DNA of 53,788 nucleotides, from contig MFNS01000002.1 of assembly GCA_001783805.1 (NCBI GenBank), forward strand, positions 1 through 53,788, read 5' to 3'. Both the position numbers and the translations under genes were made by a program. Of the stretch, positions 1 through 27,489 are shown piece after piece. Under the pieces are notes generated by a model. That model was not told where the DNA came from. It searched no databases and saw only the letters and a list, made by a program, of their open reading frames with translations. Each line of letters opens with the position of its first letter. Positions within the stretch are counted from its first letter, which is position 1. This DNA comes from Candidatus Levybacteria bacterium RIFCSPHIGHO2_01_FULL_40_16 (GTDB taxonomy: Bacteria; Patescibacteriota; Microgenomatia; Levybacterales; UBA12049).

Positions 1-92
<92 letters not shown>

Positions 93-244
93 AATTGATA
101 CTGTCAAAATTGACGTTGACAAATATCAAACCCCGCCCAGGGCGGGGATTTCCTACCACTTCTTGATCGAGGAACAAAGTTCATAGGAACATGCTCCTTC
201 AAAATAGAAGAATCCTGATTCTGATTTGCTGCTATGACTTGATT

Positions 245-474: not shown

Positions 475-873
475 CTAGTTGGCCTGAAAGAAAGTACCGG
501 GAATCTTTAATAGGTAATTAATGCCATTCATTAAAAAATTAGATATAGTTTCCAGAGGTGACTCGGTGTGTTCCGGAATTGGAATTGGCGTAGCTGCGAC
601 CTGAGCCGTAGAAGAAGACGGATTAATAAATTGTTCTTGAAATTCCCGCAGCTGCGCAATTGTCTCTAGTCTTTGCGATTCCGACTCTCCATAGGAATTA
701 AAGATTTGGTAATTGGCTACAATAAGAGGCGTTGCAATAACAATTAAAAAATAGCTGATAATAAATAATTTAGTAAATTTATCCAGGAACATGAATTCTT
801 CCCAAAGATACTTAAGCGGATTTTCTCTTTCTAATTCCGGCTGATTAGGATGAAAGGAAAGTATTTTGGCCAC
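475..873 (-). CDS. Hypothetical single-pass membrane protein
   Basis: 132-aa ORF with one hydrophobic helix (FTKLFIISYFLIVIATPLIV), co-oriented with neighbours. The start could be internal (MFLDK). Confidence 0.55.
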   Translation of the reverse strand: MAKILSFHPNQPELERENPLKYLWEEFMFLDKFTKLFIISYFLIVIATPLIVANYQIFNSYGESESQRLETIAQLREFQEQFINPSSSTAQVAATPIPIPEHTESPLETISNFLMNGINYLLKIPGTFFQAN

Positions 874-904
874 GCATTAATACTAAAGAAAAAGAAATTT
901 CATG

Positions 905-3182: not shown

Positions 3183-5234
3183 TCAGGATGACAACGGAGA
3201 TTTGCCGACATCTTCTAATTTCCAAGCCGCAAATGTGCAGGCGGGGTAATTGGAACAGCCATAGAACTTGCGGCCTTTTTTGGTTTTTTTTATCACAATT
3301 TCCCCACCGTCTTTCGGACATTTCAAGCCTGTTTGCTCAACATAAGCTTTGGTAAATTTGCAATCGGGAAATCTAGAACAAGCAAAGAATTTGCCAAATT
3401 TTCCCGTTCTGATTATTAAATTTCCTTCACTACATTTAGGACATTTTTCGCCCGTTTCCTCAACTGCAATTTTTACTCTTTCCGCTCCTTCGACTTCGGT
3501 TAATTTTTTCTCAAACGGCGTGTAGAAATTACGCAAAACAAGTTCCCATTTTTTTTCTCCGATAGCAATATTATCAAGTTCATCTTCCATTGATGCGGTA
3601 AACGGAATATCGTCAATATATGAAAAATTTGTAACCAGGAAATCGCTGACGGCAATTCCGATTGCGGTCGGAGAAAATTTACCTTCTTGCCGTTCAATAT
3701 AGTTGCGGGCTTCAATGGTAGAGATAATCGTTGCGTAAGTTGAAGGCCTGCCAATTCCCTTTTCCTCTAATGTCTTGATAATCGATGCGTCATTGTATCT
3801 GGGCGGGGGCAAAGTTTCATGTTCTTTTTCCAAAACGTCGACAAGATCAAGCTTTTCACCGTTATTAAATTTGGGTAATTTATTATCAGACATTCCCAGC
3901 GGATTTACTTTCAAAAACCCGTCAAAAACAAGCACTGATCCGTTAGCTTTTAATTTATAAGAGCCTGCATCCACAAAAACCGTGGTTGACTCGACTACCG
4001 CGTCCGACATCTGCGATGCAACTGCCCGTCTCCAAATCAATTCGTATAATTTCCACCCCTGACTCCCAACTAAATTTGAAATTTGAAATTTGAAATTTGA
4101 AATTTCGCCGAAGGCAGTTGGTCTGATTGCTTCATGTGCTTCTTGGGCTAATTTTTGTTTGGCAGAATAAATTCTCGGTTGTAATGGCACATATTTGTCT
4201 CCATATTCTTTTTTAACGAAATTGATAATTGCAAACATCGCCGCCTGACCTATCGTTACGGAATCTGTTCTGTGATAAGTAATGTATCCTTCCTCATATA
4301 ATTTTTGCGCCAAACTCATGGTTCTTTTTCCATTGATATATAATTTATGCGCCGCATCCTGCTGAAGAGTTGAGGTTGTATATGGCGCTTGCGGGCTTCT
4401 GGTAGTGGCTTTCTGCAAAATATCTGCCACTGTAAATGTTTTCGTTTTTAAATCACCAACAATTCCTAAAGCTTTTTCTCCGGAGCCAATTGAAGTTTTA
4501 GTAACCTTATACTGCCCATCATACAGATCAAAAGTCTTCGCCACCTCAATCTTTTGGCCATCAATTTCTACCAGCTCGAATAATGTTTCCTCAGGTTTTG
4601 AGTTTTGAGTTTTGAGTTTTGAGTTCACCAGCGCCGCAGCGATGGTGTAGTATTTTTCTTTTCCAAACTTCTCAATTTCCCTTTCTCTTTCTACTATCAA
4701 ACGCAGGGCGACTGATTGAACGCGCCCCGCAGACAATCCCCTACGGACTTTTTTCCACAAAAGTGGAGAAAGTTTATAACCAACCAGCCTGTCTAAAACC
4801 CGGCGCGCGGTCTGCGCGTCAACCAAATTTTTATCTATGGTTCTGGGATTTTTTAGCGCCTCTTCAATTGCTTCTTTCGTTATTTCATGAAATACTATCC
4901 TATTGAATTTTTCATTTTTAACTTTTAATTTTTCATTTGAGCGGAGCATATCGGAGATATGCGAGGCGATCGCTTCTCCCTCCCTATCTGGGTCAGTAGC
5001 CAGAATAATTTGATCCGCTTTTTTTGCTTCAGTCTTAAGTTCGGCAATAATTTCCTCTTTATCCGCGACCATCTCGTATAAAGGCTTGAAGTTGTGCTCG
5101 AAATCTATGCCGATTTTGCTTTTAGGCAAATCCATAACGTGCCCCATTGAGGCTTTAATAACATAATCGCTGCCCAAAAACTTTCCAATTGTCCTAGCCT
5201 TTGTAGGACTTTCTACGATAACCAAACTTTTCAT
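3183..5234 (-). CDS. topA: DNA topoisomerase I (type IA) with C-terminal C4 zinc ribbons
   Basis: LVIVESPTKA, ATDPDREGEAI, SAGRVQS, GYITYHRTDS, AHEAIRPT and C-terminal CPKC/CSRFPDC repeats. Confidence 0.98.
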   Translation of the reverse strand: MKSLVIVESPTKARTIGKFLGSDYVIKASMGHVMDLPKSKIGIDFEHNFKPLYEMVADKEEIIAELKTEAKKADQIILATDPDREGEAIASHISDMLRSNEKLKVKNEKFNRIVFHEITKEAIEEALKNPRTIDKNLVDAQTARRVLDRLVGYKLSPLLWKKVRRGLSAGRVQSVALRLIVEREREIEKFGKEKYYTIAAALVNSKLKTQNSKPEETLFELVEIDGQKIEVAKTFDLYDGQYKVTKTSIGSGEKALGIVGDLKTKTFTVADILQKATTRSPQAPYTTSTLQQDAAHKLYINGKRTMSLAQKLYEEGYITYHRTDSVTIGQAAMFAIINFVKKEYGDKYVPLQPRIYSAKQKLAQEAHEAIRPTAFGEISNFKFQISNLVGSQGWKLYELIWRRAVASQMSDAVVESTTVFVDAGSYKLKANGSVLVFDGFLKVNPLGMSDNKLPKFNNGEKLDLVDVLEKEHETLPPPRYNDASIIKTLEEKGIGRPSTYATIISTIEARNYIERQEGKFSPTAIGIAVSDFLVTNFSYIDDIPFTASMEDELDNIAIGEKKWELVLRNFYTPFEKKLTEVEGAERVKIAVEETGEKCPKCSEGNLIIRTGKFGKFFACSRFPDCKFTKAYVEQTGLKCPKDGGEIVIKKTKKGRKFYGCSNYPACTFAAWKLEDVGKSPLSS

Positions 5235-7724: not shown

Positions 7725-8759
7725 CTAGATACCATACATTCCCCCATCAATACTCTTGACCATCCCTTTTATTTCCATGAGAGAAAGAAGGCTGCTAAGT
7801 TGGGAGGATTTATATTTAGTTTTTCTAATTATTTCATCAAAATGCAACGCCTCATTTTCCAAAAGCTTTAAGATTATTAACTCATCTTTGGTTGCATTCT
7901 GAACTTTTGAATTTTGCTTGCCCGCTAGAGCCTTAGCGAAGGCGGGAGTTTTGAGTTCCTTAAAAATATCTTCAGCCGATGTCACTAATTTCGCTCCTTT
8001 CGAAATTAATTTATATGGACCTTTAGACATACTTGAAGTAATCGGTCCGGGTACTGCAAAAACCTTTCGATCAAATCTCAGGGCAAACTTTGCGGTAATT
8101 AAGGATCCGCTGTCTTCTGCACCTTCTGTTACCAATACCGCCTGGGATAAGCCGGCGATAATCCGGTTGCGAGCAGGAAATGTCCATTGAGTTGGCTTCA
8201 TTCCCAAGGGAAATTCCGAAACAATACAATTCCCTTTTTCAAGGATACTATTATACAAATTGAAATTCTCCATTGGAGAACAACAATCGACTCCGCACCC
8301 CAGAACAGCGATCGTTTTCCCTCCATTTTCCAAAGCAGTCAGGTGCGAAATCGCGTCAACTCCAAGAGCCAGACCCGAAACAATCGTAAATCCGTTCAAA
8401 ACCAATTCCGTAGTCAAAAGTTTCGTAACTTCCCTGCCATATTGCGTAGTTTTCCTCGCGCCCACAACAGCGATTGTTTTTGCAAACCAGGTATCGTCTG
8501 GTACCTGGCCGCGGCCATACAGAACAAACGGCGGATTTTTTATTTCTTTTAAAATTTGCGGGTAATCTTCATCCAACAAGGTAACGAACCAAACATCTTT
8601 TTCCTTAAGCTGTTTTAAATATTCTTCAATTGAGAAGTCTGACTTCTTAGCCCCCCAAGCAGCTTTTGCGGTTCCAAATTCCTTCAAAATCTTCCTAAAT
8701 TTCGCCGGCCCTATTCCGGGCAGTGCAGAAAATCCCAACCAATAATCCCGCTCGCTCAT
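7725..8759 (-). CDS. dprA: DNA-processing protein DprA (Smf)
   Basis: IAVVGARK, IVSGLALGVDA, FPARNRIIAGLS, EGAEDSGSLITA and a C-terminal winged helix. Confidence 0.97.
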   Translation of the reverse strand: MSERDYWLGFSALPGIGPAKFRKILKEFGTAKAAWGAKKSDFSIEEYLKQLKEKDVWFVTLLDEDYPQILKEIKNPPFVLYGRGQVPDDTWFAKTIAVVGARKTTQYGREVTKLLTTELVLNGFTIVSGLALGVDAISHLTALENGGKTIAVLGCGVDCCSPMENFNLYNSILEKGNCIVSEFPLGMKPTQWTFPARNRIIAGLSQAVLVTEGAEDSGSLITAKFALRFDRKVFAVPGPITSSMSKGPYKLISKGAKLVTSAEDIFKELKTPAFAKALAGKQNSKVQNATKDELIILKLLENEALHFDEIIRKTKYKSSQLSSLLSLMEIKGMVKSIDGGMYGI

Positions 8760-18971: not shown

Positions 18972-19376
18972 GTGCTAGTTCAAAACTCAAATATCAAAAA
19001 TCAAAGCCAAAATAAAAGTCCAAAGCTGGAAGTAAAATATCGCGCGTTCTATCTATCCATAAACATTATTAAGTTTTTAGAAAAACTTTCGTATAAGGTT
19101 TCTCTTAAAATTATTAGCGATCAGTTAATCAGATGCATTACTTCCGTAGGCGCTAATATCGTCGAAGCAAAAGCATCTTCTTCTAAAAGAGAGTTTCTTA
19201 ATTACTTTCAAATATCTTTAAAAAGCGCTAATGAGGCTAAATATTGGCTGGCAATGCTAAGAGAGCTACTACCCGAAGAAGGAAAAAATATAAATGTTTT
19301 TATTCAAGAATTGGACGAAATATCTAGAATAATTGGAACAAGCGTTTTAACAATGAAAGGAAAAAGAAGTCTCTAG
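18972..19376 (+). CDS. Four-helix-bundle protein (23S rRNA IVS-protein/Avd-like family)
   Basis: DQLIRCITSVGANIVEA...SKREFLNYFQISLKSANEAKYWL. Confidence 0.9.
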   Translation: MLVQNSNIKNQSQNKSPKLEVKYRAFYLSINIIKFLEKLSYKVSLKIISDQLIRCITSVGANIVEAKASSSKREFLNYFQISLKSANEAKYWLAMLRELLPEEGKNINVFIQELDEISRIIGTSVLTMKGKRSL

Positions 19377-22584: not shown

Positions 22585-22665
22585 GGATTTATTCTTCAAA
22601 GAAGAATTCAATGCCTAACCGCATTAATTCTCTAATTTAAATAAAATTCTGCTTTGCAGAGCTCC

Positions 22666-22694
22666 TTGTCCTATTTCTCTTTGTTTGGTAAAAT
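22666..22694 (+). promoter_or_regulatory. sigma70 promoter P2 for the tRNA cluster
   Basis: TTGTCC-17 bp-TAAAAT with an extended -10 TG. Confidence 0.65.
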
Positions 22695-22711
22695 GTCTTA
22701 AGCTCTTTTTT

Positions 22712-22949
22712 GCCTCCCTAGCTCAATGGCAGAGCGTATGTTTTGTCCCAGTAAAATCTTGTCAATTCTGGTAAAATTGACTTAGATTTACGGGATCCCG
22801 TAAAATCGGCTTGCCGAGATGGCTCAGTGGTAGAGCAGCTGTTTTGTAAACAGCAGGTCCCGGGTTCGAATCCCGGTCTCGGCTCACAAGACAAGCTCGA
22901 TTTTTACTGGGATAAACATATGACAACAGTTCGATTCTGTTGGGAGGCT
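22712..22949 (+). tRNA. Split/interrupted tRNA-Thr(UGU): exons about 22712-22746 and 22914-22949 with a 167-nt insert
   Basis: Acceptor GCCTCCC/GGGAGGC, D stem GCTC/GAGC, anticodon stem TATGT/ACATA and T stem AACAG/CTGTT with loop TTCGATT. The joined anticodon loop is TT-TGT-AA. Confidence 0.7.
22813..22884 (+). tRNA. tRNA-Thr(UGU), intact, nested in the insert of the outer tRNA
   Basis: GCCGAGA/TCTCGGC, GCTC/GAGC, GCTGT-TTTGTAA-ACAGC and CCGGG-TTCGAAT-CCCGG. Confidence 0.96.
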
Positions 22950-22970
22950 CAGGCAATATAATCAAATCCT

Positions 22971-23054
22971 GCTGGGTTCGCATAGCGGCAATTGCATGTG
23001 GCTGTAGACCACACGGTCGCAAGGCCTACGGGGGTTCGAGTCCCTCACCCAGCA
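22971..23054 (+). tRNA. tRNA-Tyr(GUA)
   Basis: GCTGGGT/ACCCAGC, TGTGG-CTGTAGA-CCACA, a long variable arm and T loop TTCGAGT. Confidence 0.96.
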
Positions 23055-23177
23055 CCCAATTCATTTGCGCTTATCAACAAACTAAGATAACGCAAAATCG
23101 TTGGCTCTGGAGTTCCGATTTTGCGAAACCCTAGGGGGAAAATCGTTGGGAAAAAACCGTAGGTTTTGTTCCATTTG

Positions 23178-23249
23178 GCCGACATAGTTTAGTGGTAAAA
23201 CGACTCATTGGTAATGAGTTGAGTGTGGGTCCGATTCCCACTGTCGGCT
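23178..23249 (+). tRNA. tRNA-Thr(GGU)
   Basis: GCCGACA/TGTCGGC, ACTCA-TTGGTAA-TGAGT; T loop is TCCGATT (C55). Confidence 0.92.
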
Positions 23250-23305
23250 CACAACGACCCGCCGTCGCTAAAAGCTTTGGCGGGCGCAGGAAGGAGGAAA
23301 ATATT

Positions 23306-23508: not shown

Positions 23509-23579
23509 AGGGCTATGGTGAAATGGTATCACGGCAGTCTCCAAAACTGCTTTTCCAGGTTCGAGTCCTGGTGGCCCTG
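23509..23579 (+). tRNA. tRNA-Trp(CCA)
   Basis: AGGGCTA/TGGCCCT, GCAGT-CTCCAAA-ACTGC and CCAGG-TTCGAGT-CCTGG. Confidence 0.95.
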
Positions 23580-24347
23580 CTAACCCAGAATGTCTTTGCC
23601 TTTTCCCCATCCCGGTATTGAATCGGACTCTAGCCAGCCTGCATACGACCTGGCATTTCTGAACTGATCTTTCCTAAATCTGCTTTGCGTTAAATTATTT
23701 TTATGCCGAATATCTACATTCGGAAATTCCGACCGGTAATCTTCACATCCCAAACCATCAATTCTCTCCGGCCGGTTATGTGTTCCCGGTTCAAATCCTA
23801 ATCTGTGAATACCTTCTTTTAAAGAAATTGTATTCCCGCTGGTTGCTTTAACATGGCCCGTATTGCCGGCCTCTTTTAATAACGCTTCTATTCTTTCTTT
23901 TCTTTTTCGAAAATGCGCCAGGGCAGTTTCCCGGTAGCAAGACATCCCACTTAAAGACCGGTGATCGTAATATAAGCAATGCCCATCTTTTGCCCTAAGC
24001 ATCCAGGAATTCGTGTTGTAATAATAAACATCCTTTTTGGTTGGCGTAAAGTTAAAGTGAGATGGATGATACAAAACATCGTGTTCGCAGAAAAAAACTA
24101 TATCCGCGGCACTTTCTTCCAATCCCTTAATTATCTGCTTGGTTACGGTCAGATAGCCTCTTTCTCCATCCACTATGTAATTTTTCCCGAAATCAATTGG
24201 TTTAAGCGAGACGGAAATGATGGGAATACCCAAGTCTTCAGCTTTTAAAAGCTGCTCCTGGCATTTCTTCATGATTTTTTCATCCAACCGGTTATCCGTG
24301 TAATAAATAATGCTCTTGGTGGGGATAAAAATTGCCAGATCAATCAT
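23580..24347 (-). CDS. Putative GT-A-fold glycosyltransferase
   Basis: YYTDN...FFCEHDVLYHPSHF; paralogous to 34607-35287 and to the C-terminal half of 36395-38068. Confidence 0.65.
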   Translation of the reverse strand: MIDLAIFIPTKSIIYYTDNRLDEKIMKKCQEQLLKAEDLGIPIISVSLKPIDFGKNYIVDGERGYLTVTKQIIKGLEESAADIVFFCEHDVLYHPSHFNFTPTKKDVYYYNTNSWMLRAKDGHCLYYDHRSLSGMSCYRETALAHFRKRKERIEALLKEAGNTGHVKATSGNTISLKEGIHRLGFEPGTHNRPERIDGLGCEDYRSEFPNVDIRHKNNLTQSRFRKDQFRNARSYAGWLESDSIPGWGKGKDILG

Positions 24348-25681
24348 TTTGTTCCTTTTGCGTAAAACCAGGTGGGGCCGGCATCTTTATTAAAGATAAA
24401 CAAAGGCCGGATTTTTTTCTTCTTCACCCATTCGCTAACCGCCTTTTTAACTCCGTTGGGCTGCCCGGACAATTCGTTATTATAATTATAGCCCGCTATA
24501 ATCCCGCCTTTGCGCACTTTTTTTGACCACTCCTTAATATTATCTCCTGTACTTTTATAGTCAGCCCCTGCGTCAATAAAAACAAAATCCAGTGAATTAT
24601 CGGCAAACTTTTTAGCTGCATTTGCCGATGTATCCCTGATAATTTTACAATTAAATGACTCAAGTCTCGCTTTGGCTCTATTATACAGGTCGTCGTTAGA
24701 TTCCCATGCATCAATTGCAAATAATTTTAGATTGGGATTCATAGCGCAGAGGAATTTAGCATACTTGCCTGCTCCAACCCCTATTTCAGCACCCAGATTA
24801 AACCCCAATTCCCTGAATAATACCGACAAGCTGCCCTCTCTGCTGCGATACAGCTTATGCCGCGACTGATTTTTCTTTAATTGATATTTATTTAAGATAT
24901 ACTTTGACGTCGTCATATTATCCACTACATTATATGCTTCCGACTTATGTTTTTCAAACCATTCATATCGGTTGCCCCTTGTTTTGTCGGGAAGCTGATG
25001 CTTCTTATTCTTCCACCGCATTATAGCAAAGGTAGTGGGGAGAGGAACGCCAATGAAATAACGTGAGAAATTTTTTGTATCTCTGTCTTCAAGATATTTT
25101 CTTCCGAAATAGCGATAATGCAACATTTTTACCCCTATCTCTTCTCCTTTTTTGAATGAAGTATTTCCTTGCAGTTCTGCAATACTATGGCAGCCATTTC
25201 TAAAACGTATATAAATTGCAGGATCAAATAAAACACACTGGGTTGCCCAATAATCAGGGAGTCCATTTTTTACTTCATCATAAATCTGCCCGGTGGTGGT
25301 TGGTAATGTTTCAGAAAACATTGTGAATCCCTGAGGTTGTATCAGCTGTGTCCCAAGTTTTTTCTCGCGTTTTAATACTTCCATTAAATTAGGGTGATAA
25401 AGAAACTCATCCGCGTCAACCAATACCACCCAATCAGCTTTACCGCGGCTAAGTTCCTCATACTTCGTCCACAATTTACTAATCCAATATCCCTCATTTA
25501 ATCCATGTTCTTTTAAATCAAAGATTGTAACTTTTGGATGCTGACTTAATATCTTTCTGCTATTATCCGGACTTTCATCGTAAAAAGCATATATGTTTTG
25601 GGCAAAACTTCCATAATGCTTCAGGAAATAAGGCAAAAGAAATTCCTCATTGTAAACCATGACATAAACATCAATTTTCAT
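24344..25681 (-). CDS. GT2-like glycosyltransferase fused to a class I methyltransferase domain
   Basis: N-terminal VMVYNEEFLL...VDADEFL; C-terminal AEIGVGAG...LDFVFID...KVRKGG. Confidence 0.82.
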   Translation of the reverse strand: MKIDVYVMVYNEEFLLPYFLKHYGSFAQNIYAFYDESPDNSRKILSQHPKVTIFDLKEHGLNEGYWISKLWTKYEELSRGKADWVVLVDADEFLYHPNLMEVLKREKKLGTQLIQPQGFTMFSETLPTTTGQIYDEVKNGLPDYWATQCVLFDPAIYIRFRNGCHSIAELQGNTSFKKGEEIGVKMLHYRYFGRKYLEDRDTKNFSRYFIGVPLPTTFAIMRWKNKKHQLPDKTRGNRYEWFEKHKSEAYNVVDNMTTSKYILNKYQLKKNQSRHKLYRSREGSLSVLFRELGFNLGAEIGVGAGKYAKFLCAMNPNLKLFAIDAWESNDDLYNRAKARLESFNCKIIRDTSANAAKKFADNSLDFVFIDAGADYKSTGDNIKEWSKKVRKGGIIAGYNYNNELSGQPNGVKKAVSEWVKKKKIRPLFIFNKDAGPTWFYAKGTK

Positions 25682-26340: not shown

Positions 26341-27489
26341 TCATTTTACATACATCCAGGTTGGACGAGAATCTTTATTAAGGATAAGCAAAGGCCGGAT
26401 TTTTTTCTTTTTTACCCATCCGTCAACCGCTCTTTTGACTTCATTGGGTTTTCCGGACAATTCGCTAGTATAATTATATCCGGCTACAATTCCGCCTTTG
26501 CGCACTTTTTTTGACCATTCCCAGATATTGTTTTTTATACTCTTATAGTCATTAATTTCATCCAGAAAAACAAAATCCAGTGAATTATCGGCAAACTTTT
26601 TAACCGTATTCATTGACGTATCTCTAATAATTTGACAGGTAAACGGCTCAAGCCTTATTTTGGCCTTGTTATATAGTCCATCGTTAGATTCCCATGTGTC
26701 AATGGCAAATAATTTAAGCTTGATACTAATAGAACAAAGGGTTTTAGAAAATCTGCCTGTTCCGACCCCAACTTGAGCACCCTGATTAAATTCCAATTCC
26801 TTAAACACCTTTAACAAACTGACCTCCCTACTGCGACATAGCTCATACCGAGATTTGCCTCTCTTTAATTTGAATCTGTTTTCAATATGCCTTAGAGTAT
26901 TCATCCTCACAGCCCTCTCTTCAATTCCGGCCTTTCTATTTTCATATCTTCTAATTGCATCCTCCACTGAAGAAGCTTGAATGACTTTTGGATTTTTATT
27001 CCAATGCCAGTTCAATTTTCTTTCTCTCCAATTGTCTCTATAGATATTTTTTAGATATTCTTCGTATTTATGAGGAACAGGAACTTTACGACCCTCAAAT
27101 TCAATATAGCTGTAGGGAAATATGATATCCTTATCAAGCACATAATAGCAGTCTCGCCAAATATTTAATACTACATATTTACCTCTCGTAATAATAAATA
27201 CAATATCCGTTCTATATGCGTCTCCATCCCTATAAAAACCTATGCTGCCAAATCCTGAAGCGGCCCGTTTATCAAAAAAATAGTATTTTAAAGGATTTTT
27301 TAAAATTTTTTCTCTATATTCAGCCTGGACAAACATATCTATCTCCGAATCATCATCAAAAGGTTTTCTCTGAAGAAGAAATGCCATCAGGGTACTTCCT
27401 CCCAAAAAATACGGAATTTTTAATTTATCCAATTGGTCCATTGACCCGAATATAAAGTTTTCCATTAAAGTTGCTTTTGCAGATGTCAT
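26341..27489 (-). CDS. LicD-like nucleotidyltransferase fused to a methyltransferase-like domain
   Basis: YFLGGSTL...DDDSEID, FEGRKVPVP...YL..IY; C-terminal GAQVGVGTG...LDFVFLD. Confidence 0.78.
   Translation of the reverse strand: MTSAKATLMENFIFGSMDQLDKLKIPYFLGGSTLMAFLLQRKPFDDDSEIDMFVQAEYREKILKNPLKYYFFDKRAASGFGSIGFYRDGDAYRTDIVFIITRGKYVVLNIWRDCYYVLDKDIIFPYSYIEFEGRKVPVPHKYEEYLKNIYRDNWRERKLNWHWNKNPKVIQASSVEDAIRRYENRKAGIEERAVRMNTLRHIENRFKLKRGKSRYELCRSREVSLLKVFKELEFNQGAQVGVGTGRFSKTLCSISIKLKLFAIDTWESNDGLYNKAKIRLEPFTCQIIRDTSMNTVKKFADNSLDFVFLDEINDYKSIKNNIWEWSKKVRKGGIVAGYNYTSELSGKPNEVKRAVDGWVKKKKIRPLLILNKDSRPTWMYVK

Follow-up and report, generated by a model that had tools for sequence, protein, structure and literature searches.

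A tRNA-Thr(UGU) gene on a Levybacteria chromosome is split in its anticodon loop by a 167-nt insert that carries a second, complete tRNA-Thr(UGU) of different sequence. Comparison at the sequence level with other genomes shows that the insertion is derived: the outer gene is uninterrupted in nine Microgenomates genomes, and one of these copies is identical to the two halves joined. It also shows that the insert belongs to a family with precise ends, no target duplication, covarying helices and incongruence between element and host. We consider it likely that this family is a small, mobile, non-coding cassette of promoter plus tRNA, which disrupts a resident tRNA gene and replaces its function.

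Anatomy of the nested locus

The window, by which we mean the whole 53,788-nt stretch that was analyzed, is ordinary chromosome, with genes for topoisomerase I, DprA, PBP2, MreBC, Def, Fmt and glycan modification. ARAGORN reports an intact inner tRNA-Thr(UGU) at 22813-22884/5, which scores 75.6 bits against the Rfam tRNA model. The outer gene was not reported by the ARAGORN intron mode (0-300 nt), and manual joining was needed. With 22712-22746 and 22914-22949 joined (junction ...GCGUAUGUUUUG|UAAACAUAUGAC...), the program calls a tRNA-Thr(tgt) of 71-72 nt whose stems are paired 7/7, 4/4, 5/5 (plus a G.U) and 5/5. Excision of 167 nt (22746-22912, TCCCAG...CTGGGA) unites the two outer halves. 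An earlier note on this DNA had described a perfect 71-nt cloverleaf after removal of 167 nt and a complete, different tRNA-Thr(UGU) inside the insert; both descriptions hold, the first by the ARAGORN call and by identity to the uninterrupted gene of locus L007, the second by ARAGORN and Rfam. The inner and outer tRNAs are 73% alike over the 5' half, and the cargo is not a copy of the outer gene. The features of the locus and its downstream neighbors are as follows.

22666..22694, + strand: promoter-like site of the resident (outer) tRNA gene (TTGTCC, 17 nt, TG-TAAAAT; consensus scan), with 17 nt between its end and the outer tRNA start
22712..22745, + strand: outer tRNA-Thr(UGU), 5' part, positions 1-35 (ARAGORN on joined halves; identical to the L007 gene); acceptor 5' strand, D arm, anticodon-stem 5' strand, loop UUUUG
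22746..22912, + strand: inserted cassette, 167 nt, TCCCAG...CTGGGA, without target-site duplication
22746..22795, + strand: unit A (alignment of 17 distinct units)
22746-22758, + strand: arm A-L, TCCCAGTAAAATC
22761-22781, + strand: hairpin 1, GTCAATT/AATTGAC, with TGGTAAAAT (22769-22777) in loop and 3' arm
22785-22795, + strand: arm A-R, GATTTACGGGA
22796..22812, + strand: arm B-L, the inner tRNA leader, TCCCGTAAAATCGGCTT
22801-22806, + strand: second -10-like TAAAAT, in B-L, 18 nt after TTGACT (22777-22782)
22813..22884, + strand: inner (cargo) tRNA-Thr(UGU), intact (Rfam 75.6 bits, ARAGORN)
22885..22912, + strand: trailer and arm B-R, CACAAGACAAGCTCGATTTTTACTGGGA, pairing with B-L
22913..22949, + strand: outer tRNA-Thr(UGU), 3' part, U36 to discriminator (ARAGORN on joined halves; identical to the L007 gene); UAA, anticodon-stem 3' strand, 4-nt variable loop, T arm, acceptor 3' strand
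22970-23058: tRNA-Tyr, downstream neighbor of the nested locus
23178-23250: tRNA-Thr(GGU), after tRNA-Tyr and before rpmG
23509-23580: tRNA-Trp, after rpmG

The insert has no protein-coding capacity, and its non-tRNA part amounts to only ~95 nt. A second TGGTAAAAT lies within the insert at 22769-22777, and the TTGACT-18-TAAAAT site ends 6 nt upstream of the cargo, which is presumably a working gene. The TGrTAAAAT motif is also found upstream of resident tRNA genes in relatives. In the window, the distance from the end of the upstream TGGTAAAAT to the start of the outer tRNA is 17 nt, not the 11 nt that had been proposed. The insert ends form a terminal inverted repeat (TCCCAGTAAAA/TTTTACTGGGA), and a perfect palindrome (TTTACGGGA|TCCCGTAAA) is centered in the insert at 22787-22804; these two features and the internal TGGTAAAAT are all present as the note had listed them. 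All four arms of the window insert are variants of TCCC(A)GTAAAATC, so that A-L can also pair with B-R over 11 bp and the center becomes a perfect palindrome.

The 238-nt unit folds as nested cloverleaves, one within the anticodon arm of the other, at -97.4 kcal/mol (shuffle mean, -64.8; z = -7.0; 0/200 shuffles as good). Both the minimum free energy and the centroid folds of the window draw an otherwise continuous helix across the two junctions, with a one-base bulge (a single U). The leader/trailer duplex has an energy of -20.4 kcal/mol. The end helix of about 19 bp and the possible switch between folds that the earlier note described are peculiar to the window: only TCCCAG/CTGGGA is common to both insert ends in relatives, whose junction helix is UUUG+UCCCAG / CUGGGA+UAAA, without bulges.

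Could the locus be an assembly artefact joining two tRNA-Thr loci? The 73% identity of the two tRNAs over the 5' half would lend itself to such an error. However, look-ups of two flanking proteins located nine independent assemblies from different samples and assemblers (among them ENA MEGAHIT, three JGI metagenomes, and the NCBI MAGs GCA_001782525.1 and GCA_001782335.1) that are identical over the 400 nt around the tRNAs, and homologous nested loci occur in about 20 other genomes. We regard the chance of mis-assembly as negligible. The nine assemblies are at least 99.87% identical overall, and therefore prove reproducibility, not conservation. The insert is present in all nine, and no polymorphic empty site was found within one population.

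The empty site comes from relatives instead. A scan for the outer 5' half, with one genome per species, gave nine loci from Daviesbacteria, Curtissbacteria, Levybacteria and unlabeled CPR bins, and the tRNA is uninterrupted in 9/9. In one of these, L007 (Levybacteria contig CAIQLZ010000027), the uninterrupted tRNA-Thr(UGU) matches the joined outer sequence over all 71 nt, and the site is syntenic with the window: tRNA-Thr(UGU), then tRNA-Tyr, tRNA-Thr(GGU) and rpmG. Because this gene is identical, uninterrupted and syntenic, we take the outer halves to be the resident gene and the 167 nt to be a derived insertion.

A family of inserts with cognate cargo

The earlier note had proposed a search of related CPR genomes for the same arrangement. 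Pattern scans now give 23 homologous inserts in 22 CPR loci after duplicate removal, a census made by exact-pattern scans on unit A and biased towards close relatives. Other searches add to this picture. blastn of the whole unit against >150 Thr-UGU loci picked out two nested homologs, L110 and L032. The anticodon arm of the inner tRNA is a common bacterial Thr-UGU sequence, found at >150 loci, and the search for a donor was otherwise uninformative. Scans for the conserved insert hairpin gave six true matches in genomes, 15/15 in metagenomes and three further genomes. A covariance model, R1, built from 17 units, scores 75 bits in the window, where the unit is single copy, and found no new members over ~150 further tRNA-Thr loci. 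An R1 match of 22 bits at L052 was taken as chance, as it sits in apparently coding sequence. No scan returned a larger element with the same ends. The labeled hosts are Levybacteria, Microgenomates and "Patescibacteria group"; several bins labeled Gammaproteobacteria are syntenic with Levybacteria, and we therefore take those labels to be wrong.

Every insert lies in an anticodon loop, in the orientation of the interrupted tRNA. Sizes range from 160 to 188 nt, and the ends are TCCCAG...CTGGGA family-wide, with a few degenerate copies. The flanks restore an exact 7-nt anticodon loop in Thr, Cys and Trp contexts, with nothing duplicated or lost. Members in tRNA-Cys and tRNA-Trp fix the insertion point (UUG^CA.., AUC^CA..), since only one boundary restores their anticodons. 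By this comparison the window insert is 22746-22912, between G35 and U36; the note had left the choice open, and its other option, 22747-22913, falls away. When the Cys, Trp and Thr insertion points are compared, insertion is seen to occur 5' of YA(A/G)A and not at one fixed tRNA position.

The cargo has the same isoacceptor identity as the target in every insert, across five contexts.

Thr-UGU in Thr-UGU: most loci
Thr-GGU in Thr-GGU: L184
Thr-CGU in Thr-CGU: L185
Cys-GCA in Cys-GCA: L181, L186
Trp-CCA in Trp-CCA: L188 and copies

Of the two Cys types, the one that is outer gene in L181 is cargo in L186, and vice versa. Unit A is nearly identical in a Cys element (L186) and a Thr element (L182), and unit A therefore does not set the target.

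The internal architecture, unit A followed by unit B, is common to the other complete loci of the family. Unit A consists of arm A-L (TCCCAG), a hairpin with TGrTAAAAT in its loop and 3' arm, and arm A-R ending in CGGGA; unit B consists of arm B-L (TCCCG plus leader), the cargo tRNA, a trailer and B-R ending in CTGGGA. The helix A-L:A-R is 94.7% paired across 17 distinct units, and 5 of its 11 pairs have changed on both sides. Shuffles reached the observed values in 0/500 cases on four of five measures and 1/500 on the fifth, and slid controls are only 20-54% paired. In unit B, the trailer follows the cargo acceptor sequence (GTCGGCT, GGCGGCT, AAACGG, CCGGC, AGGC), and leader/trailer duplexes are more stable when matched than when mismatched within the family (mean, -22.5 versus -15.2 kcal/mol).

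At what level these helices matter is less obvious. In the unit A helices, G.U (7) and A.C (9) mismatches are balanced, and since G.U is not above A.C there is no signature of a plus-strand RNA. A-L and the 5' arm of hairpin 1 also lie upstream of the -10 of the cassette itself. Their conservation points to a role at the DNA level, or in an RNA made from the outer promoter.

A precise junction in an anticodon loop calls to mind integration, since tRNA genes, including those for tRNA-Thr, classically serve as att sites at their anticodon loops. The insert might then be the remnant of an integrase-mediated phage or island integration, mostly deleted since. In this form we find the idea highly improbable. 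A duplicated core and a partial 3' copy of the tRNA are both absent, no integrase is found nearby in the window, and a constant 160-188 nt with defined inverted ends recurs at 22 loci. Nor does unit A occur elsewhere as such an origin would suggest: its pattern had no match in viral contigs, and a blastn search of plasmid and phage collections with unit A plus the leader was equally negative. We also considered a site-specific recombination core and rejected it, with no bases shared between the junctions beyond one ambiguous T in the Thr cases. The earlier note's suggestion of an integration scar at the anticodon loop nevertheless comes closest of its options, in that this is a recurrent insertion family. 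It is not a scar of the classical kind: the inserted unit is compact, a promoter plus a tRNA, with neither a duplicated att core nor a partial tRNA copy.

Horizontal movement and the fate of interrupted genes

Seven Levybacteria-type loci are syntenic with the window, with genes at 65-76% DNA identity and spacers that cannot be aligned. Across these relatives the identity of the element departs from that of the host, for which we use the neighboring tRNA-Tyr.

Cargo, window versus L178: 100%; host tRNA-Tyr, 79%
Cargo, window versus L183: 82%; host tRNA-Tyr, 93%
Unit A, L178 versus L183: 100% (50/50); host tRNA-Tyr, 78%
Unit A, window versus L187: 80%; host tRNA-Tyr, 94%

L187, whose host is closer to that of the window than L178 is, has a different unit A and a different cargo. 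The incongruence of element with host, and of unit A with cargo, indicates transfer together with modular recombination. A free-standing tRNA gene in L113 is 93% identical to the window cargo and has its own TGGTAAAAT. We also asked whether the tRNA-Thr(GGU) of the window is a former cargo. This was not established: its type is that of the L184 cargo but also occurs in L178 and L176, and no relic flanks the window gene.

Other loci record insertion upon insertion. L196 is nested three deep, tRNA-Thr in tRNA-Thr in tRNA-Thr, followed by tRNA-Tyr. One tRNA type appears as cargo in L192, as interrupted outer gene in L199 and as a 3' relic in L191. In L190 and L191, the 5' and 3' halves belong to different tRNA types, and their acceptor strands cannot pair. 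Such nests, relics and chimeras are what repeated insertion into the current working copy, followed by deletion between repeated units, would leave.

The two kinds of tRNA gene fare very differently. Every cargo is intact (ARAGORN call, 60-77 Rfam bits), whereas the outer gene is called as the right tRNA after in-silico excision in only 6/22 cases: the window, L181, L187, L189, the middle gene of L196, and L198. The remaining 16/22 outer genes cannot form the right tRNA even so, with the following defects.

Anticodon stem scrambled: L178, L183, L194, L186
Second insertion in D arm: L110, L184, L185, L200, outermost gene of L196
T-loop insertion or lost 5' part: L176, L188
3' half truncated: L182
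Halves from different tRNAs: L190, L191
No 3' half within 700 nt: L032, L192

The outer gene of the window has no defect at all, so that nothing in its sequence marks it as dead; in the reading that we prefer it would be a relic, still pristine and probably non-functional. Many outer halves carry GC-rich hairpins in their D or T loops, which look like a second small insertion family.

These defects bear on several earlier claims. Intact pairing in both tRNAs had been offered as an argument against decay; it does not generalize, and the window outer simply equals its uninterrupted ortholog. The note had also named stem-breaking substitutions in the outer halves of relatives as evidence that would count against its reading. 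The relatives do show them, along with truncations, chimeras and secondary insertions, in 16/22 cases, with the inner gene always intact.

They also bear on the proposal of a new bacterial tRNA intron. Here the insert would be excised from the outer pre-tRNA, either by some novel endonuclease and ligase or through RNase III cleavage of the long helix, so that outer and inner tRNA both mature; it would move by reverse splicing into tRNA anticodon loops and then reverse transcription. Several observations suit this reading. The outer cloverleaf of the window is perfect and the insert ends extend its anticodon stem; six outer genes are intact, and L110 becomes so once its second insertion is also removed; helices A and B covary; and anticodon-loop targeting, fixed orientation and the lack of target duplication would fit a target at the RNA level. 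Broken outer genes could even be accommodated if splicing were dispensable, since the cargo duplicates the function. Yet 16/22 outer genes form no tRNA even after excision, with non-complementary acceptor strands in two, a 3' half missing or truncated in three and broken anticodon stems in four, and restoring the host tRNA would make a cargo of its own isoacceptor redundant. The long helix between the ends is a feature of the window alone, the cassette -10 comes downstream of helix A and the 5' arm of hairpin 1, and the numbers of G.U (7) and A.C (9) mismatches give no plus-strand RNA signature.

Nor does the insert show the hallmarks of known introns. A cmscan of 22650-22990 against Rfam, at the gathering threshold and at E <= 10, matched the inner tRNA only, with no match to a group I core (Intron_gpI), a known small ribozyme or tmRNA. 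The flank rule for group I introns (U, rarely C, before the 5' site, last base G) is not followed: the base before the insert is G in the Thr and Cys cases and C in the Trp cases, and the last base of the insert is A. Neither the window nor its relatives have junctions that can be drawn as a bulge-helix-bulge (3-nt bulge, 4-bp helix, 3-nt bulge), and the outer exons have not been kept functional in all carriers, as 16/22 fail. The Pfam scan took in 28/55 window ORFs, and no splicing endonuclease or RNA ligase was seen among them. The earlier note had already seen no group I hallmarks and no clear bulge-helix-bulge, and both the Rfam search at E <= 10 and the folds agree. Its options of an intron that releases a second tRNA and of a tmRNA-like mimic find no support, the former in view of the broken outer genes and of Rfam matching the inner tRNA only, the latter because neither ARAGORN nor Rfam reports a tmRNA. 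In all, we think an intron quite improbable.

The Levybacteria-type loci raise a different possibility. In these outer genes, positions 1-24 and 32-35 and the 3' half are unchanged, compensatory T-stem variants aside, and positions 25-31 have been replaced wholesale in L178, L183 and L194. Changes in the syntenic loci thus cluster in the anticodon stem, in a setting where the flanking intergenic DNA cannot be aligned, and L183, L194 and L176 have a new G-rich run complementary to the first bases of the element. This pattern is not neutral decay. It could reflect a residual role of the outer halves (processing scaffold, homology arms) or selection against the outer anticodon stem.

Taken further, there may have been one old insertion, inherited vertically in Levybacteria, with outer halves selected for a non-decoding role: their acceptor, T and D arms might form a tRNA-like scaffold that guides RNase P and processing at the 3' end and stabilizes the precursor, or the halves might be homology arms that spread the nested allele by recombination. 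The seven syntenic loci with the insert at the same site, the invariance of outer positions 1-24 and the 3' half beside unalignable neighboring DNA, and the concentration of changes in the anticodon stem are all in keeping with it. Against it, the modules of the element are incongruent with the host tRNAs and with one another, the locus persists where the outer gene is lost, truncated or chimeric (L032, L176, L182, L190, L191, L192), and four other tRNA species, as well as unrelated outer types, carry these ends and unit A, which requires repeated de novo insertion. We therefore hold a single, vertically inherited insertion to be unlikely.

A proposed mobile replacement cassette and its likeness to known elements

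In the explanation that we prefer, a mobile cassette would have entered the anticodon loop of the resident tRNA-Thr(UGU) gene between G35 and U36, and would have delivered a promoter-like hairpin (TGGTAAAAT), a pairing leader and trailer, and a complete tRNA-Thr(UGU) of foreign type. Transcription of the cargo would start at the cassette promoter, perhaps also at the outer one (22666-22694), and RNase P and 3' processing would then free the tRNA from the leader-trailer helix. The split resident gene would yield no decoding tRNA. This genome probably has one gene per isoacceptor; the cognate cargo would supply the lost function, so that the insertion is tolerated and the host survives. Non-cognate insertions into single-copy tRNA genes would be lethal and hence never seen, and selection alone could thereby produce the match between cargo and target.

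How the cassette moves can be sketched in the same conditional terms. An insertion activity acting in trans may recognize the ends and hairpins, and the presence of one set of ends in five tRNA species suggests that de novo insertion has happened repeatedly. The nested allele may also spread by homologous recombination through the conserved tRNA halves, which would fit the chimeric outer genes. Re-insertion into the current working copy would build nests, whose older layers would decay or be deleted. No circular junction and no mobilizing enzyme were found.

If this is true, a selfish element of CPR bacteria destroys an essential single-copy tRNA gene and becomes indispensable through the replacement that it carries. 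It would account for the horizontal turnover of tRNA genes in reduced genomes, for patchy phylogenies among the tRNAs of a single gene cluster, and for the nested and half genes that annotation pipelines overlook or miscall. tRNA gene finders report the inner gene only, and the relics can mislead tRNA censuses and predictions of att sites and islands. It also raises the question of which activity inserts a cassette with defined ends at anticodon loops, of genes or of tRNAs, without duplication.

The earlier note knew of no described example, and our keyword search, whose coverage of the literature is incomplete, likewise found no description of tRNA genes nested in bacterial tRNA genes; the related literature that it returned concerns only group I introns. 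We rate the cassette as a new kind of element, as it fails the defining tests of a group I intron, a bulge-helix-bulge intron, a MITE with target duplication and an att-site integration. It has likenesses to each of them.

Group I introns that interrupt the tRNA genes of bacteria are, like the cassette, selfish insertions in the anticodon loop that are precise, leave no target duplication and allow a viable host. However, they restore the host tRNA by self-splicing, whereas viability here would come from the replacement gene that the cassette carries, and they have a catalytic core of at least ~200 nt, a U(-1) and an omega-G, whereas the cassette has no core. The introns and split or permuted genes of archaeal tRNAs are also insertions in tRNA loops whose ends pair beside the anticodon stem. 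Archaeal introns have a bulge-helix-bulge, can occupy non-canonical positions, and have been proposed to transpose in Thermoproteales; several insertions per tRNA are found in archaea, to which the hairpins in the D and T loops of cassette outer halves may be compared. In contrast, the cassette has no bulge-helix-bulge and its hosts are bacterial, and the decay of its outer genes indicates that splicing is not maintained.

tRNA-integrating phages and islands share with the cassette a tRNA-gene target, often the anticodon loop, and an invader that preserves tRNA function. They are kilobases long, encode an integrase, duplicate an att core and restore the same gene as a chimera by means of a 3' part. 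The cassette, in contrast, is 160-190 nt long, adds an entire separate gene, promoter included, and leaves the two old halves on either side, with no att-core direct repeat of tRNA sequence at the junctions.

There is also a formal likeness to MITEs, IS200/IS605 and REP/RAYT elements and integron attC sites, which are short and non-coding, with inverted termini and conserved bulged hairpins, and which, like the cassette, must be mobilized in trans. The cassette has the terminal inverted repeats of a MITE (TCCCAG/CTGGGA across the family). However, MITEs duplicate their target and the cassette shows no target-site duplication in Thr, Cys or Trp contexts. In this it resembles IS200/IS605, which insert beside a short target without duplication, but unlike theirs its termini are true inverted repeats. 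It further differs from MITE-type elements in having no known parent element or transposase, and in combining a functional tRNA cargo and promoter with a cognate anticodon-loop target. The nested locus, whose natural outer halves would act as a scaffold only under a rival reading, also resembles an artificial tool, the engineered "tRNA scaffold," in which an RNA is expressed inside the anticodon arm of a tRNA; there, too, an RNA takes the place of the anticodon loop and the acceptor and T arms remain.

Replacements and hairpins in the outer tRNA halves

In some of the loci from other genomes and metagenomes compared with the window (L-numbers), four to six adjacent bases of the outer anticodon stem are swapped wholesale, with length unchanged and everything else in the outer halves invariant. 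The replaced strand is the 5' one in L178/L193, L183, L194, and L187, and the 3' one in L186 and in the outermost tRNA of the triply nested locus L196. The new G-rich run in L183, L194, and L176 is complementary to the first bases of the element (TCCC or CCCC).

In addition, many outer halves carry inserted GC-rich hairpins, either in the D arm (stem or loop) or in the T loop, namely, those of L110, L032, L176, L184, L185, L188, L196 (outermost tRNA), and L200. Three of these are on the minus strand:

L110, about 7935-7900, minus strand, GC-rich hairpin
L032, about 1915-1860, minus strand, GC-rich hairpin
L176, minus strand, GC-rich hairpin in an outer half

The hairpins read CCTGCC...GGCAGG/GGCGGG, or ...CCTGCTTGACAGG..., and the D stem of the L110 outer tRNA is still paired once its hairpin is removed. 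They appear to form a second small-insertion family with tRNA loops as its landing sites.

The tRNA-Thr(UGU) genes of L136 and L041 appear free, yet each has a tRNA-Thr 5' fragment upstream:

L136, upstream of 808-882, minus strand, fragment ending ...TCTGTTTTG, then 12 nt
L041, upstream of 4716-4788, plus strand, fragment ending in the D arm, then TCCCGCTCC...

These arrangements may be decayed or variant members of the cassette family that do not have unit A, the 5' part with hairpin 1.

A second promoter-like site and the neighbouring tRNA-Thr(GGU)

The cassette holds a second promoter-like site, which ends 6 nt upstream of the cargo (inner) tRNA:

22777-22806, TTGACT (in hairpin 1, 3' arm), 18-nt spacer, TAAAAT (in arm B-L, the cargo leader)

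A transcript from this putative promoter would have almost no leader. The corresponding -10 of class-2 relatives is too near the tRNA.

The neighbouring tRNA-Thr(GGU) of the window (23178-23250) is of the same type as the cargo of the L184 element, and, in a comparison with L184, L178, L176, L183, and the uninterrupted L007, its distribution in syntenic loci conflicts with that of tRNA-Tyr. It is 96% identical to its counterpart in L178 and 74% to that in L183. These findings hint at an earlier tRNA replacement at this gene, but it has no flanking relics.

Host labels and other genes in the window

Microgenomates-type tRNAs occur in several metagenome-assembled genomes (binchicken/TPA assemblies) labelled "uncultured Gammaproteobacteria" (L001, L008, L009, L032, L176, L183, and L201). 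Since some of these genomes (e.g., L176 and L183) are syntenic with Levybacteria, the labels look wrong.

Elsewhere, the window carries the following:

1-93, minus strand, 5' end of a 16S rRNA gene, running off the window start
7725-8759, minus strand, DprA (DNA-processing protein A) gene
18972-19376, plus strand, 23S rRNA-intervening-sequence protein gene (PF05635), with rpmB and an M50 peptidase gene as neighbours
24353-24812 and 26341-26800, minus strand, stretch shared by two methyltransferase/LicD-type genes of the glycan cluster

The PF05635 gene stands alone, outside any 23S gene. 16S genes also lie a few kilobases from both Cys-type elements, L181 and L186. The two glycan-cluster genes have a 460-nt stretch in common at 78% identity, which is an internal paralogous repeat. 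DprA is a recombination mediator of natural transformation, and its gene is relevant here only as a possible route for the uptake and recombination of nested alleles.
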